A stretch of 64,000 bases of DNA from a phage: the NCBI GenBank assembly GCA_025829515.1, contig GCA_025829515.1_4865.1, one strand, 5' to 3'. Of this stretch, positions 2,979 through 41,336 are shown piece by piece. The notes under the pieces are model-generated. The model worked only from the letters and a program-made list of their open reading frames with translations, was not told where the DNA came from and made no database searches. A program made the position numbers and the translations under genes. Numbering within the stretch: the stretch's first letter is position 1; each line of letters starts with the position of its first letter.

Positions 2979-3007
2979 AATACCACCTACGGGTGGTATT
3001 ATTTTTT
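2979..3007 (+). terminator. rho-independent terminator
   Basis: Stem aataccacc/ggtggtatt, loop tacg, then T-run. Confidence 0.75.
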
Positions 3008-3025
3008 GCCTAAGGAACGTGAAAA

Positions 3026-3442
3026 ATGATTAATGAGAAGCTCCAAAAGTATTTAAAGAATGACACCGACTGGATGGTCCTTGACCAGTACGGACGATTT
3101 GTTCCGCTATCCAAGGATTCCCCTATACCCCGTGACAAGGCGATTTATATTCCTGACGGTAAGGGCGGTTATCGTTTCTGGGAAGGCCAGGAAGTAAAAG
3201 AGGAAATGTTCTACATGGAGCCGAAGTTCCGTGCGGCGTTCCCATCGAAAAATATCAACGGCTATGTTTACAACGCAATTCCGCCAATTACGCATCCTAA
3301 CTTTGAGGTTGTGAACTACCCCGCAACTGTTCTGGATTGGCAACGTGCCATTAGTGAACACTACACGATCCCGCTTGAAGGTGTTTACTTCCCATTCCGT
3401 GATATTAGTTTAGATGACTTTATTAACTCTCTTAAGGACTAA
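3026..3442 (+). CDS. hypothetical protein (138 aa)
   Basis: ORF with AAGGA upstream. Confidence 0.7.
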   Translation: MINEKLQKYLKNDTDWMVLDQYGRFVPLSKDSPIPRDKAIYIPDGKGGYRFWEGQEVKEEMFYMEPKFRAAFPSKNINGYVYNAIPPITHPNFEVVNYPATVLDWQRAISEHYTIPLEGVYFPFRDISLDDFINSLKD

Positions 3443-3444
3443 AA

Positions 3445-4305
3445 ATGTACAGCATTACTGATTTCATCAAAAGTTCAGATTTCCCCCTACCTCCCGACCA
3501 CGAAGTATTGGCTAGCGATCCGTTAACCGATGCGGCCATTGTCCAGCTGGACCGCGACAAACGTCGTACTTACGTCGTGTTGGTCGAAGGGCAGAGCTAC
3601 GGCCTGTCTTCTTACGACCTGGAGCAGCAGGAGCGTTTCCTCGATGAAAACCGCAAAACGTCAATGTATAGCGCTATCTCGCGTGCGCTGTGCAAGGTAA
3701 TGGCAACCGTTACAGACAGCAAAAAGCGTATCGCTGTGTTACAGGGTATCAATGCACTAACGACCAAAATCCAACAACTTGAAGGTTTCCATTGCCCGCG
3801 ATTGGAAGCCGCACAGAAGGATGCTAAGGGCGATGAGGCCATGGCACTGTTTGAAGGCAATACTGTCTTTGCAACAGCTGAAGCTTGTTATCTCACCTAT
3901 CCAACTTTTAACTATACGCCAATCAGCGACACCGTAGACGGGATTAAAGTAGAGAACGTCGTGCAATGGGGTCGTGCAAATCTCAAGTTTGTGATGTCCC
4001 ATGAAGAAGAAAATCAAGATGGCCTTGGGCAGAAGATTCAACGTTGGTTCACGGCGCGTTTGGACGCCGACTGGGAAGCGCATGTTAACGCAGAGCTTCG
4101 TAAATTTCACGCGGTAGTCGCATTGTTAAAAGAAGACGCTCCCGCCCCGAAACAATCGAAGGCACCAGTGGTTGGCTGGACGTGTTCCGGCTGTAACCGC
4201 AACCATGTCGCTACAGTACCGAGAACTCATCGCTACACTTCGCAGACGATGAACATTGCTTGCCCGGCTTGCGGTAAGATCAACGAAGTTGATTATAAAC
4301 CGTAG
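3445..4305 (+). CDS. hypothetical protein with C-terminal zinc-ribbon-like CxxC...CxxC (286 aa)
   Basis: C-terminus CSGCNRNH...CPACGKINEV; coupled to upstream gene. Confidence 0.7.
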   Translation: MYSITDFIKSSDFPLPPDHEVLASDPLTDAAIVQLDRDKRRTYVVLVEGQSYGLSSYDLEQQERFLDENRKTSMYSAISRALCKVMATVTDSKKRIAVLQGINALTTKIQQLEGFHCPRLEAAQKDAKGDEAMALFEGNTVFATAEACYLTYPTFNYTPISDTVDGIKVENVVQWGRANLKFVMSHEEENQDGLGQKIQRWFTARLDADWEAHVNAELRKFHAVVALLKEDAPAPKQSKAPVVGWTCSGCNRNHVATVPRTHRYTSQTMNIACPACGKINEVDYKP

Positions 4306-4312
4306 TAGTACC

Positions 4313-4351
4313 CCCTCTTACCTTCGGGTAAGAGGGTTTTATATTTATTTT
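4313..4351 (+). terminator. rho-independent terminator (UUCG tetraloop)
   Basis: ccctcttacc-ttcg-ggtaagaggg plus ttttatatttatttt; hairpin identical to the one at 30800-30823. A second hairpin gctctctcc-cgaa-ggagagagc follows at 4372-4393. Confidence 0.8.
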
Positions 4352-4419
4352 CCGAAAAGAAAATAAAAGGCGCTCTCTCCCGAAGGAGAGAGCTTATTCA
4401 CATCCACTTAGAGGTTAAC

Positions 4420-4566
4420 ATGAATACCTTTATACAACAACTGCGTCAGCAACAGCTGAAACAAGTCGCTTTTCAACAACGTCTGCAAGAGGTTAGCCGC
4501 CAACCGCAGACTTCCACCCGTACCATTAAAGGACTAGGAGGTGACATCATCTTCAATAAGAAGTAA
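4420..4566 (+). CDS. small Gln-rich protein, paralog 1 (48 aa)
   Basis: Not in track (<60 aa). GAGG 5 nt before ATG; same length and about 40% identity to 4679-4825 with shared C-terminal IKGLGG(D/E)I motif; own terminator. Confidence 0.55.
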   Translation: MNTFIQQLRQQQLKQVAFQQRLQEVSRQPQTSTRTIKGLGGDIIFNKK

Positions 4567-4575
4567 CACTAACCA

Positions 4576-4597
4576 GGGGTGCTCGAACACCCCTTTT
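4576..4597 (+). terminator. terminator hairpin
   Basis: ggggtg-ctcgaa-cacccc followed by tttt. Confidence 0.6.
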
Positions 4598-4678
4598 AAC
4601 TCCCGTGACAGTATATCAGTGCATTGTGTACCACCACAGCGCAGCGATATATTAACAACCTGCCTAAGGAGGCACTAC

Positions 4679-4825
4679 ATGGAACAACTACGTTCGCAAA
4701 TACTTAACCATTACGTTAAGCAAACCCAATTCAACCAACGTGTACAACAGTTGACTGCGCCCAAGCAGAACACTGTTCGTCGTATCAAGGGTTTAGGAGG
4801 TGAAATACTACTAAACAAAAGTTAA
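4679..4825 (+). CDS. small Gln-rich protein, paralog 2 (48 aa)
   Basis: AAGGAGG 6 nt before ATG; the track ORF 4541-4825 is a read-through extension across the terminator. Synonymous third-position differences relative to paralog 1 (att/atc, aaa/aag, gga/ggt). Confidence 0.6.
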   Translation: MEQLRSQILNHYVKQTQFNQRVQQLTAPKQNTVRRIKGLGGEILLNKS

Positions 4826-38858: not shown

Positions 38859-39556
38859 TGGCTAAGCAAAAGAAACCCCGTAACAAAAAGTATAACCCGA
38901 AAGTTGCCACAGAACGTACGGCACACACCGTCGCTGAAAACGCTCTGAATCGTATCACGTTTATCGGCAGTTCGATTCGTCGCCTCGGGCCGTACGCGGG
39001 CCGTGGTTTTCACTTTACGGCAAGTCCTCGTATTCGTGCTATCGCCACAGATATGTTAGTCGGTGGGCTGTTCGACCAACCGCGACCATGGCATCTTTGG
39101 GTGATGCACCTCACTGAACTCGACACCGGTGAAATTGTAACAGAAACCGCAGTTGCCACACTCGACGATTATACTTTGGCGGACTTCTGTGAACACGCTG
39201 AGAAGTTAGTTAAATCGTTACGCCCTGAACAGGAAGAGGGGAAGTATTTCGGTTATGCATTTGTGGCCGCCCCGAACGAGCGGTACGACTTCAAAGCGGA
39301 AGAAGACCAACTCATTGAAAACTTCATGCATTCTGGACTACTTGATACGTCGTTACATCTGTCGGAAGAGCAACAGTTCGTTAGTCGTGCAGAAATGGCC
39401 AACCTGCTCGTTGGTTATACTCGGAAGTTTGACGTGACCGTTGAACATGTCAAAGAAGTACCAGAGATTGTGAGCAAGAAAGACGAGGTGGTGCTTCCGG
39501 TTGACGAGGTTGTCAGTAAAGTAGCGACTGCGATAGGGGCAACGGGGGATTACTGA
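38858..39556 (+). CDS. hypothetical protein (232 aa)
   Basis: ORF in coupled operon. Confidence 0.7.
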   Translation: MAKQKKPRNKKYNPKVATERTAHTVAENALNRITFIGSSIRRLGPYAGRGFHFTASPRIRAIATDMLVGGLFDQPRPWHLWVMHLTELDTGEIVTETAVATLDDYTLADFCEHAEKLVKSLRPEQEEGKYFGYAFVAAPNERYDFKAEEDQLIENFMHSGLLDTSLHLSEEQQFVSRAEMANLLVGYTRKFDVTVEHVKEVPEIVSKKDEVVLPVDEVVSKVATAIGATGDY

Positions 39557-39765
39557 TGAATCTACGTTGGCCGATCGTGGCTGCTGTGTTGTTTTGTATT
39601 TATATCGCCATCAGCACCAGTACCCGCACTGCAGAACGTCGCGAGACCGCAACCAGTACGTTCAGAATGTGCATTGACCGCATAGACCCGAACAGCACCA
39701 CTTATCCTGACGCGGTGAATGCGTGCCGTAAAGCAGTTGCTGAGATATTGAAAGAGGAAAATTAA
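39556..39765 (+). CDS. small membrane protein (69 aa)
   Basis: TGATG coupling; N-terminal TM helix WPIVAAVLFCIYIAIS. Confidence 0.6.
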   Translation: MNLRWPIVAAVLFCIYIAISTSTRTAERRETATSTFRMCIDRIDPNSTTYPDAVNACRKAVAEILKEEN

Positions 39766-39992
39766 TGGAAAACCTCACACCGATTGAGATAGTGTCGCCA
39801 TTCGACCGTTACGTATATGGACAAACGCAAGCAAAGAAAATGCTGGCGATTGCGCTACGTAATCGATATCGTGCCAACAAACTCAACGTAGTGGACCGTA
39901 TGTCGGTCCACAAACAGAACCTTTTAATAGAAGGTCCAACAGGCACGGGTAAAATGGCGCTGATGCGTGAAGAAAAACAGAAACAAAAGTGA
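39765..39992 (+). CDS. truncated HslU-like AAA+ ATPase N-terminal fragment (75 aa)
   Basis: Aligns by eye to the first about 70 residues of HslU as recalled ([32 protein letters not shown] ... ILMIGPTGVGKT versus PIEIVSPFDRYVYGQTQAKKMLAIALRNRYRA ... LLIEGPTGTGKM); ORF stops right after the degenerate P-loop; TAATG-coupled. Confidence 0.6.
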   Translation: MENLTPIEIVSPFDRYVYGQTQAKKMLAIALRNRYRANKLNVVDRMSVHKQNLLIEGPTGTGKMALMREEKQKQK

Positions 39993-40000
39993 GGTAAAGG

Positions 40001-41008
40001 ATGGCGAAGCTCGTTTCGTTTTCAGCAGGGTTGGATTCCACCTGGATAATGTATCAGCTGCTATGCAAAGCACCGGCCAATGAAGCACGACATGTCCGTC
40101 CTGCGTATTTCTCCATGTGGAATGGAGGTAACGCGAACTTCATGGAAATTCTTTGTAGCGTGGCCATTGTTGAACGGTTGATGGATAGACACCATGCACA
40201 AACCGATCATGTTACATGGGCGGTGCTCGGGGAAGAGAACTTCCCGCCTGTCGTTAGCGCTGGATATGCTAACGGCTGGTCGCCTCTGGTTCAGCAGGGC
40301 AATGTTGTTAACGGTCTCGCTAAACTGATGTGTGGTATTACGCGCAAACAGCACCACGCCTATGCAGTTGTTGGTTGGAATAAGCTAGATGCGTTGGAGA
40401 ATAGTCTAGAGCTGGGAGATTGGACATTAGACGAGTACGCTCGCTTAAAGAACCTCTATAGCGAATTGATGTATTTCCAAGATCATGCCGGTCGCGTTCC
40501 ACCGCTTCTAACACCTGCGTGGGATAAAGAGAAACTGGAAATGTGGCAGGAGTTGCCGGAAGATATTCGTAGGTTGGTACAGGTCAGTAACTACAACAAC
40601 TACGAATTCGCGATAGACCGTGAGAATAACGTGCTCATCGTTTATGCCAATCCGTCAGCAAAGTCGCAGAATTATCGTAGTCTTGGTATTACACCGTCAG
40701 TGGGATGGGAGATTAAAATCAACGATGCTTACAGACGGGTATGGTGTTCTGCTCTTGGTAGTGCTATTTCTGCTATGGGTTTGGACGTGCCGGCTTTTGC
40801 TAACTTTAAGGACACGGAAAGAAACCACACGACCTTTACGGTAAGTGAAGATACTGACCGGTTATGTATCACATCGTTTACCGCGGAAGAGTGGTGCGAG
40901 TATGCGCCACATTTTAAAGCGCTTCAGGAGAAAGAAAAAGAGATAGCGAAAAATGCCAAAGCAAGTAAAGCTGTGGACGCTCCAACTGGCGAAGTGGCGG
41001 ATAGCTGA
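40001..41008 (+). CDS. PP-loop ATP pyrophosphatase superfamily protein, QueC-like N-terminus (335 aa)
   Basis: N-terminal LVSFSAGLDSTW resembles the SGGxDS PP-loop (QueC VVVFSGGQDSTT); no QueC-type C-terminal Cys cluster seen. Confidence 0.4.
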   Translation: MAKLVSFSAGLDSTWIMYQLLCKAPANEARHVRPAYFSMWNGGNANFMEILCSVAIVERLMDRHHAQTDHVTWAVLGEENFPPVVSAGYANGWSPLVQQGNVVNGLAKLMCGITRKQHHAYAVVGWNKLDALENSLELGDWTLDEYARLKNLYSELMYFQDHAGRVPPLLTPAWDKEKLEMWQELPEDIRRLVQVSNYNNYEFAIDRENNVLIVYANPSAKSQNYRSLGITPSVGWEIKINDAYRRVWCSALGSAISAMGLDVPAFANFKDTERNHTTFTVSEDTDRLCITSFTAEEWCEYAPHFKALQEKEKEIAKNAKASKAVDAPTGEVADS

Positions 41009-41336
41009 AAAACGGAATTTGCCAAAGCTGGATATAACGGTTAAGTCGGGGCTGAAATATTTGGCACCCGACTGGGACTTTCTGATGGACTACAAGAAGT
41101 CTGACAAAGGCCCCGACGCAGAAGCTGCGTATACCAAACGCTACCTGCAGAAACTTAGTCGGTTGTTTGATGAAGACACTGATAAGTTGATAGAGATTCT
41201 CCGCCAGGGCGAGGTCGTACTAATGTGCTATTGCCCACCGGGGAAATTCTGTCATCGCCACTTGCTAGTTTCTTACCTTATTGAAATCGGTGAGTGGTTC
41301 GGTTATGAAGTAATTTACATGGGCGAATTATCGTAA
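40953..41336 (+). CDS. hypothetical protein with CYC-x6-CHRH motif, DUF488-like? (127 aa)
   Basis: Overlaps the 3' end of the PP-loop gene by 56 nt; motif VVLMCYCPPGKFCHRHLL. DUF488 attribution is from recollection and weak. Confidence 0.45.
   Translation: MPKQVKLWTLQLAKWRIAEKRNLPKLDITVKSGLKYLAPDWDFLMDYKKSDKGPDAEAAYTKRYLQKLSRLFDEDTDKLIEILRQGEVVLMCYCPPGKFCHRHLLVSYLIEIGEWFGYEVIYMGELS

Follow-up and report, generated by a model that had tools for sequence, protein, structure and literature searches.

The window analysed here is a stretch of 64,000 nucleotides (nt) of phage DNA (contig GCA_025829515.1_4865.1). It contains an open reading frame (ORF) of 75 amino acids (aa) whose translation, MENLTPIEIVSPFDRYVYGQTQAKKMLAIALRNRYRANKLNVVDRMSVHKQNLLIEGPTGTGKMALMREEKQKQK, resembles the N-terminus of HslU, the ATPase subunit of the bacterial HslUV protease. 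The preliminary description of this DNA took the ORF for a phage-encoded mimic of host HslU. Our results did not bear this out: the 3' end of the ORF was set by a deletion junction, and the final seven codons derive from a different gene. The ORF originated by a microhomology-mediated deletion and is very probably a scar, without function, of an HslU-like gene of the phage's own. Its product most likely does nothing. We refer to it below as the remnant ORF.

The deletion junction

The window phage is an SPN3US-like jumbo phage of the genus Seoulvirus, whose members have genomes of about 240 kb. The region shared 98.7% identity with Salmonella phage SPLA1a and 94-97% with other Seoulvirus members. 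A tblastn search of phage genomes revealed that the N-terminal 68 residues of the remnant recur in many related jumbo phages as the start of a far longer gene. In SPLA3, MET_P1_082_240 (MET_P1) and 1252, an intact 1761-bp HslU-like gene encoding 586 aa occupied the slot of the remnant, directly after the same 69-aa gene. The gene order in SPLA3 and MET_P1 was the 69-aa gene, the 586-aa gene, a 160-aa gp149-like gene, a 110-aa gp148-like gene and a 335-aa gene. Phage 1252 carried intact hslU-like and gp148-like genes between the same flanking genes and lacked the gp149-like gene. The position of the hslU-like gene was also syntenic in CR5.

Alignment of the window with SPLA3 gave two collinear blocks (reference positions 1-612 and 3034-3309) with a 7-nt overlap, and 2,428 bp were missing from the window. 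The 5' segment of the remnant fell within a 561-nt SPLA3 match of 96.8% identity. In SPLA3, 1252 and MET_P1, the 9-nt direct repeat GTTGATGCG was present at both endpoints of the deletion. The first copy covers codons 65-68 of the hslU-like gene (A-L-M-R, in the context ...GGC GTT GAT GCG GGT...), and the second lies ten codons before the end of the gp148-like gene (K-L-M-R-E, in the context ...AAG TTG ATG CGT GAA...). The window follows the left, hslU-like context before its only repeat copy and the right, gp148-like context after it. The gp148 protein of SPN3US and its homologues in SPLA3 and 1252 end in ...NAKLMREEKQKQK*, and the remnant ORF is accordingly a chimera of hslU-like codons 1-68 followed by EEKQKQK and a stop from the gp148-like gene. 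Two features of a pseudogene were thus found, namely an intact orthologue that close relatives carry at this locus between collinear flanks, and a short direct repeat at both endpoints with one copy remaining. These results show that the remnant ORF arose by microhomology-mediated deletion. Because the ORF ends at the deletion junction, the HslU similarity stops at codon 68 and the next gene is unrelated.

The identical junction was found in EC001, SPLA1a, Lh1B and JN03, four independently sequenced phages. The ORF itself is on record as 18 protein alleles on more than 100 contigs (NCBI, ENA, JGI and Logan), many of them about 240 kb long. The allele is therefore real and inherited. A pattern scan of IMG/VR with the junction-specific GGCGYTGATGCGTGAAGAAAA gave no match.

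The arrangement suggests the following course of events. Between the 69-aa and 335-aa genes, the ancestor of this Seoulvirus lineage carried genes for a 586-aa HslU-like AAA+ ATPase, a gp149-like protein of 160 aa and a gp148-like protein of 110 aa with a signal peptide. A single deletion of ~2.4 kb between the two GTTGATGCG copies took 518 ATPase codons, the whole gp149-like gene and nearly the whole gp148-like gene, fusing 68 ATPase codons by accident in frame to the last seven gp148 codons and the stop. The peptide is probably now drifting, and the Thr-to-Met change in its GKT motif is one of several lesions among the remnant alleles.

Similarity of the remnant to HslU

We compared the 75-aa translation with solved structures by phmmer. 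HslU was the top family (E=7e-14), with ORF residues 1-68 aligned to HslU residues 1-68 without a gap, and ClpX was the next-best match at about 1e-9. The NCBIfam model TIGR00390 (hslU) matched with E=1.7e-15 over profile positions 1-65 of 441; the score of 56.9 bits lies below the curated cutoff of 362.45, so that the ORF does not qualify as an HslU equivalog. The phrog_4339 profile matched with E=9.9e-30 over positions 2-70 of 552, whereas the SPLA3 protein spans positions 2-529. Pfam gave nothing above threshold for the 75-aa ORF, only sub-threshold matches to generic P-loop families (AAA_7 and Sigma54_activat); the HslU relationship is visible only through NCBIfam, PHROGs and the solved-structure search. 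The ORF contains both the AIALRNR block and GPTGTGK followed by Met. The preliminary description was therefore right about the match to some 70 residues of the HslU N-terminus and about a GPTGxGK P-loop with Met in place of Thr/Ser.

The remnant shares GQ..AK, AIALRNR and GPTGxGK with bacterial HslU (ClpY; PDB 1G4A and 1DO0), and differs from it in lacking the catalytic, pore, I-domain and HslV-docking parts. It stops at HslU alignment position 68, before the GYVG pore-1 loop, Walker B, sensor-1, the arginine finger, sensor-2 and the small alpha-helical domain, and it has no C-terminal HslV-docking tail. Compared with the phrog_4339 proteins, it occupies the same slot behind the same upstream gene as in Seoulvirus relatives and retains 68 of about 586 residues; the pore loop, large insert, Walker B, sensors, Arg finger and small domain are deleted, and the last seven residues are foreign. 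Homology and orthologous position place it with phrog_4339, and full-length coverage does not. Beyond N-terminal homology, the remnant has nothing that defines an HslU, and it is best classed as a phrog_4339 remnant.

We also searched all six frames of the window by tblastn with four full-length phage homologues as queries and found no further HslU-like segment. A frameshift correction therefore cannot restore a full-length ATPase, and the ORF is not one half of a split hslU gene, in agreement with the preliminary description, which had also noted that the next gene is unrelated.

The P-loop lesion was located to codon 64 (39954-39956), which is ATG (Met) in the window and ACG (Thr) in all full-length relatives, a single C-to-T change. 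The Thr of GKT in Walker A coordinates Mg. GPTGxGKT is invariant in Salmonella HslU and five full-length phage proteins, and an intact Walker A, GPTGxGK(T/S), is absent from the 75-aa ORF. The T64M change belongs to the window allele, whose exact 75-aa match is MCV8334779.1 on a 168,936-bp contig from an 'E. coli' assembly; most sister remnants carry T59R rather than T64M.

The full-length HslU-like gene of jumbo phages

The 586-aa protein matched TIGR00390 with E=1.6e-61 in two blocks, and Pfam assigned AAA and AAA_2 to it. Its motifs aligned with those of Salmonella HslU at Walker A (GPTGTGKT), the GYVG pore loop and Walker B (VVFLDEFDK), and also at sensor-1 (LFVAAG), the arginine-finger segment (ELQGRFPLR) and sensor-2 (LGARRL). 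As judged from these alignments, the phage protein is a genuine HslU homologue. The full-length phage proteins differ from bacterial HslU in that an insert of 300-400 aa replaces the I-domain and the C-terminal HslV-docking tail is missing.

In outgroup genera, represented by ChrisDB, Wellington, CR5, SPAsTU, pEa_SNUABM_29 and RAY, the full-length forms measured 569-687 aa. RAY gp116 (Erwinia phage RAY, 569 aa) is intact and shares the split-AAA+ layout of the ancestral full-length gene; in sequence it is a distant homologue, its N- and C-terminal blocks being 34% and 30% identical, respectively, and the remnant aligns only with its first 69 residues. The closest experimental result concerns this protein: Prichard et al. 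(2023, PMC10299810) reported RAY gp116 to be an accessory, non-core HslU-like protein found together with phage DNA, probably within the phage nucleus. The published description of Salmonella phage pSal-SNUABM-04 states that no HslU subunit is encoded (PMC7823757). We observed in its genome (MT710307.1, 106144-107871) a full-length HslU-like homologue (tblastn, 99% coverage, 49% identity) that is annotated as 'putative DnaA protein'.

A search of 1.84 billion representative proteins showed that the short form is limited to one cluster (at least 88% identity), the sole cluster at E<=1e-30. The next matches were full-length phage proteins, and all more distant relatives were 569-687 aa long. Short HslU N-terminal matches are many among these representatives and are possibly HslU fragments at contig ends, which makes their length uninformative. 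Conservation as a stand-alone short ORF across diverged phages was not found. Since the long form occurs in several genera, the short form in one narrow cluster, and the tail of the short form comes from another gene, the long form is ancestral.

Repeated deletions at the locus

The locus has been hit repeatedly. Relative to SPLA3 we defined three deletions, D1 to D3, each with microhomology at its junction (Table 1). After D1, SPN3US retains merely the first 38 nt of the remnant ORF, and match patterns point to D1 also in the SPFM phages, SEGD1, SaP7 and SPLA5c. D3, the deletion of the window, arose independently of D1, because it keeps codons 13-68, which are gone in D1. The independent occurrence of D1 and D2 at the same locus shows that the genes concerned are dispensable. 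A remnant allele from a short Logan contig, P0012, would fit a fourth deletion at a GCACG repeat, as read from its protein sequence; this deletion would start in the P-loop and extend into the 335-aa gene. Most sequenced Salmonella and E. coli members have lost the unfoldase through separate short-repeat deletions.

In Proteus phage 7 (reference stretch L012, 1710-1811), D1 and D2 were combined, and the gp148-like gene stood alone between the 69-aa and 335-aa genes. This double deletion suggests either sequential loss or recombination between deletion alleles.

Remnant alleles and selection

We examined the remnant alleles for signs of selection. T59R, which turns GPTG into GPRG, was present in 12 of the 18 alleles and T64A in one other; further replacements were R68C, D44Y, Q22P, L4H, and A11S/T together with L12P/S. 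The tail was frameshifted (EEKTETKVR) in three alleles and extended in one, and one allele had a further deletion into the next gene. By contrast, Salmonella HslU and five full-length phage proteins, the latter diverged to about 50% identity, all have T59, T64 and R68. Phage-invariant columns accounted for 4 of the 10 replaced positions, against a chance expectation of 33 in 68. Since the replacements reach invariant columns at about the chance rate, conserved sites are not avoided. Among five nucleotide sequences, the changes found only in remnants comprised 4 nonsynonymous and 3 synonymous ones, which is compatible with neutrality (P=0.21). Small as they are, these counts would be unlikely under the constraint that acts on the corresponding codons of intact genes (omega=0.07; P=0.027).

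Some observations weigh against reading the ORF as a scar without function. The pairwise ratio of nonsynonymous to synonymous polymorphism (pN/pS) was 0.16 in the remnant, not above that of the adjacent genes (0.17-0.19; flanking genes overall 0.04-0.19), with 0.07 for the same codons of intact genes. However, much of the synonymous variation in the remnant is common to intact alleles and is probably older than the deletion or derived from recombination, so that the pairwise ratio is uninformative. No stop or frameshift was found in codons 1-60 among the 16 complete alleles with the D3 junction, in a target of only 204 nt at a divergence of a few percent. Finally, the translation signals are intact and the peptide is probably produced, which leaves room, as far as sequence can tell, for some activity of the peptide. 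Taken with the allele data above, relaxed constraint on the remnant appears likely, though not proven.

The remnant-bearing contigs, many of them 237-243 kb in length, were submitted as assemblies of Salmonella enterica or E. coli isolates. Whole jumbo-phage genomes were evidently sequenced together with clinical or surveillance isolates, which could reflect a carrier state, pseudolysogeny or contamination.

Translation and predicted properties of the peptide

A Shine-Dalgarno sequence, AGAGGA, lies 7 nt upstream of the remnant ATG, which overlaps the upstream stop codon (TAATG). Because the start codon, the Shine-Dalgarno sequence and this overlap have all been kept, the 75-aa peptide is probably still made. 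Of the AAA+ large domain, it would contain only the N-terminal helices, the central strand beta-1 and the P-loop. In AAA+ proteins, beta-1 is normally buried between strands, which are deleted here; Walker B, sensor-1, the arginine finger and the small domain, on which both nucleotide binding and contacts within the hexamer depend, are likewise all missing. From this established structure, we infer that the peptide is unable to bind ATP, to hydrolyse it or to assemble into a hexamer.

The ribosome-binding region of the 335-aa gene (GAGGTAAAGG) sits in the retained gp148-derived segment, and the remnant ends 8 nt before the next ATG. Retention of this piece of gp148 may be a reason why D3 was viable.

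Alternative explanations

We weighed other explanations of the ORF against a functionless deletion scar. The best of them, which we still regard as unlikely, is that translation through the remnant is kept because it couples the translation of the 69-aa and 335-aa genes or protects the mRNA between them; the peptide itself would be irrelevant and early stops would be disfavoured. The overlap with the upstream stop and the position of the remnant's end within the ribosome-binding region of the next gene are in line with this, as are the tail variants ending in KVR*, which likewise terminate just upstream of the ATG of the 335-aa gene, and the tight gene spacing that all three deletions preserve. 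However, in allele P0012 the border with the next gene has been deleted together with that gene's start codon, and the missing early stops may merely reflect the short time since the deletion.

It is less probable still that the 75-aa peptide evolved as an inhibitor which joins or caps the hexamers of host HslU (or ClpX) and stops HslUV proteolysis during infection. This develops the dominant-negative idea of the preliminary description, in which a stand-alone fragment could poison HslU hexamers or the HslUV protease. Its N-terminal similarity to HslU and ClpX is real, its ribosome-binding site and start codon are kept, and the allele is widespread. Inhibition of host proteases is also known in phages, as with T4 PinA, which acts on Lon, and lambda cIII, which acts on FtsH. 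Like these, the remnant is a small phage ORF with a conceivable tie to an ATP-dependent protease; unlike it, PinA and cIII are dedicated genes and not protease fragments, whereas the boundaries of the remnant were set by a deletion and its sequence has not been held constant. Its identity to host HslU is about 46%, compared with 91-95% to the full-length gene of the phage's own lineage. Every AAA+ subunit-interface element and the HslV-docking tail are gone from the fragment. Motif residues that are otherwise invariant differ from allele to allele, as does the tail; the Met in the P-loop is a variant of this allele. The short form is a single narrow cluster, and even this fragment has been lost in SPN3US-type phages. 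The dominant-negative proposal was thus left unsupported.

A weaker version is also very doubtful: that the expressed peptide may by accident hinder HslU- or ClpX-type unfoldases, whether those of the host or of a co-infecting sister phage, and so help the allele to spread, or that loss of the unfoldase is itself selected. Within this pair, a disadvantage of carrying an HslU-like unfoldase in Salmonella or E. coli hosts may be somewhat likelier than accidental peptide activity, since at least three independent microhomology deletions have destroyed genes here, two of which cut short the hslU-like gene.

Recent capture of a host hslU fragment by illegitimate recombination is scarcely credible: the best non-phage relatives of the remnant are indeed bacterial HslU proteins, but Salmonella HslU is only 45.6% identical, whereas residues 1-68 are 91-95% identical to the 586-aa proteins of sister phages and 60-84% identical to those of other genera. 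Syntenic full-length orthologues in several jumbo-phage genera, beside the distant RAY homologue, show that the HslU-like gene has long been resident in these phages. The suggestion of a decaying captured host gene was therefore close to the truth as regards decay and mistaken as regards its source, which is the phage's own gene. An assembly or sequencing artefact that made a false deletion or frameshift can practically be dismissed, because the junction and the ORF recur in independent records and no other frame of the window holds HslU-like sequence. Some related records are poor (for example, N bases in the Lh1B ORF), but nothing specific points to an artefact.

Candidate protease partners and neighbouring genes

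A gp149-like protein of 145-161 aa, labelled 'head maturation protease' (phrog_7478), adjoins or lies near the HslU-like gene in several genera. The sole Pfam support for the protease label was a Peptidase_S80 match to the homologue Wellington gp144 that, at 23.0 bits, fell just short of the cutoff (23.4). The gp149-like gene is deleted in the window phage and in phage 1252. CR5_121 (reference stretch L015, 3936-4439), annotated 'peptidase HslV family', starts with MTTVF... and resembles an N-terminal-Thr hydrolase; it had no Pfam match at E<=1 and no homologue in the window. We considered whether the gp149-like gene is a relative of CR5_121 and rejected this, as the two are unrelated.

In the 335-aa protein downstream of the remnant, the N-terminal VSFSAGLDST resembles the SGGxDS PP-loop of ATP pyrophosphatases, and the protein had no Pfam, NCBIfam or solved-structure match. 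The P0012 allele seems to have lost the start of this gene through its further deletion. The next gene (40953-41336, + strand) encodes a DUF488-N3a family protein (Pfam E=7e-12), and its first 56 nt are shared with the 3' end of the 335-aa gene.

Table 1. Coordinates and sizes of the remnant ORF, its neighbours, related genes and the deletions at the locus
Feature	Location	Strand	Size	Remarks
Upstream 69-aa gene	window 39556..39765	+	69 aa	Stop overlaps remnant ATG (TAATG); also precedes the intact hslU-like gene in SPLA3, 1252 and MET_P1
Remnant ORF	window 39765..39992	+	75 aa	ATG 39765, TGA 39990-39992; from ORF list and sequence
HslU-like 5' part of remnant, up to junction repeat	window 39765..39958	+		Collinear with SPLA3 3001-3194
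Walker A remnant GPTGTGKM	window 39933..39956	+		Codon table of eight nucleotide sequences
Junction, sole surviving repeat copy	window 39959..39967	+		Reads GCTGATGCG in window, GTTGATGCG in relatives
3' tail EEKQKQK and stop	window 39968..39992	+		Identical to gp148-like 3' end of SPLA3, 1252 and SPN3US
Downstream 335-aa gene (phrog_8825)	window 40001..41008	+	335 aa	Unrelated to HslU; follows gp148-like gene in intact relatives
SPLA3 HslU-like protein, WNT47929.1	SPLA3 reference stretch (L010) 3001-4761		586 aa	
MET_P1_082_240 HslU-like protein, WFG41614.1			586 aa	Annotated 'hslU'
Salmonella phage SPAsTU HslU-like protein, AXF51070.1			586 aa	
Erwinia phage pEa_SNUABM_29 HslU-like protein			585 aa	
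Erwinia phage ChrisDB HslU-like protein, gp132			580 aa	
Erwinia phage Wellington HslU-like protein, gp148			580 aa	
Cronobacter phage CR5 HslU-like protein, CR5_127			687 aa	
Homologues of the SPLA3 gene in other reference stretches	L004 2501-4243; L005 2480-4543; L006 2474-4216; L007 2501-4261; L017 1353-3062			
gp149-like gene, SPLA3	L010 4842-5324			
gp149-like gene, SPN3US gp149	L001 4057-4542			
gp149-like gene, Wellington gp144	L006 412-849			
Deletion D1			1,750 bp	Repeat GCGCT(A/G)TT; removes hslU-like gene from about codon 13 onwards; SPN3US, Proteus phage 7
Deletion D2			472 bp	Repeat AACCC(C/T)A; removes gp149-like gene; 1252, Proteus phage 7
Deletion D3			2,428 bp	Repeat GTTGATGCG; removes most of hslU-like, all of gp149-like and nearly all of gp148-like gene; window, EC001, SPLA1a, Lh1B, JN03

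Implications

In the databases, the short ORF is labelled 'putative heat shock protein' (EC001 and Lh1B), and the long genes are labelled 'HslU domain-containing' or 'hslU'. Our literature search uncovered no work on this fragment or on the HslU-like gene of Seoulvirus. The remnant ORF should carry a remnant label, not 'putative heat shock protein' or 'HslU'. The value of the finding is mainly corrective, in that an apparent host-protein mimic becomes a truncated copy of the phage's own gene, and a by-product is a map of an unstable locus in SPN3US-like jumbo phages. Because most sequenced Salmonella and E. coli members have lost the unfoldase by separate deletions, it is dispensable in the hosts of isolation, and natural isogenic-like pairs exist for probing its role.

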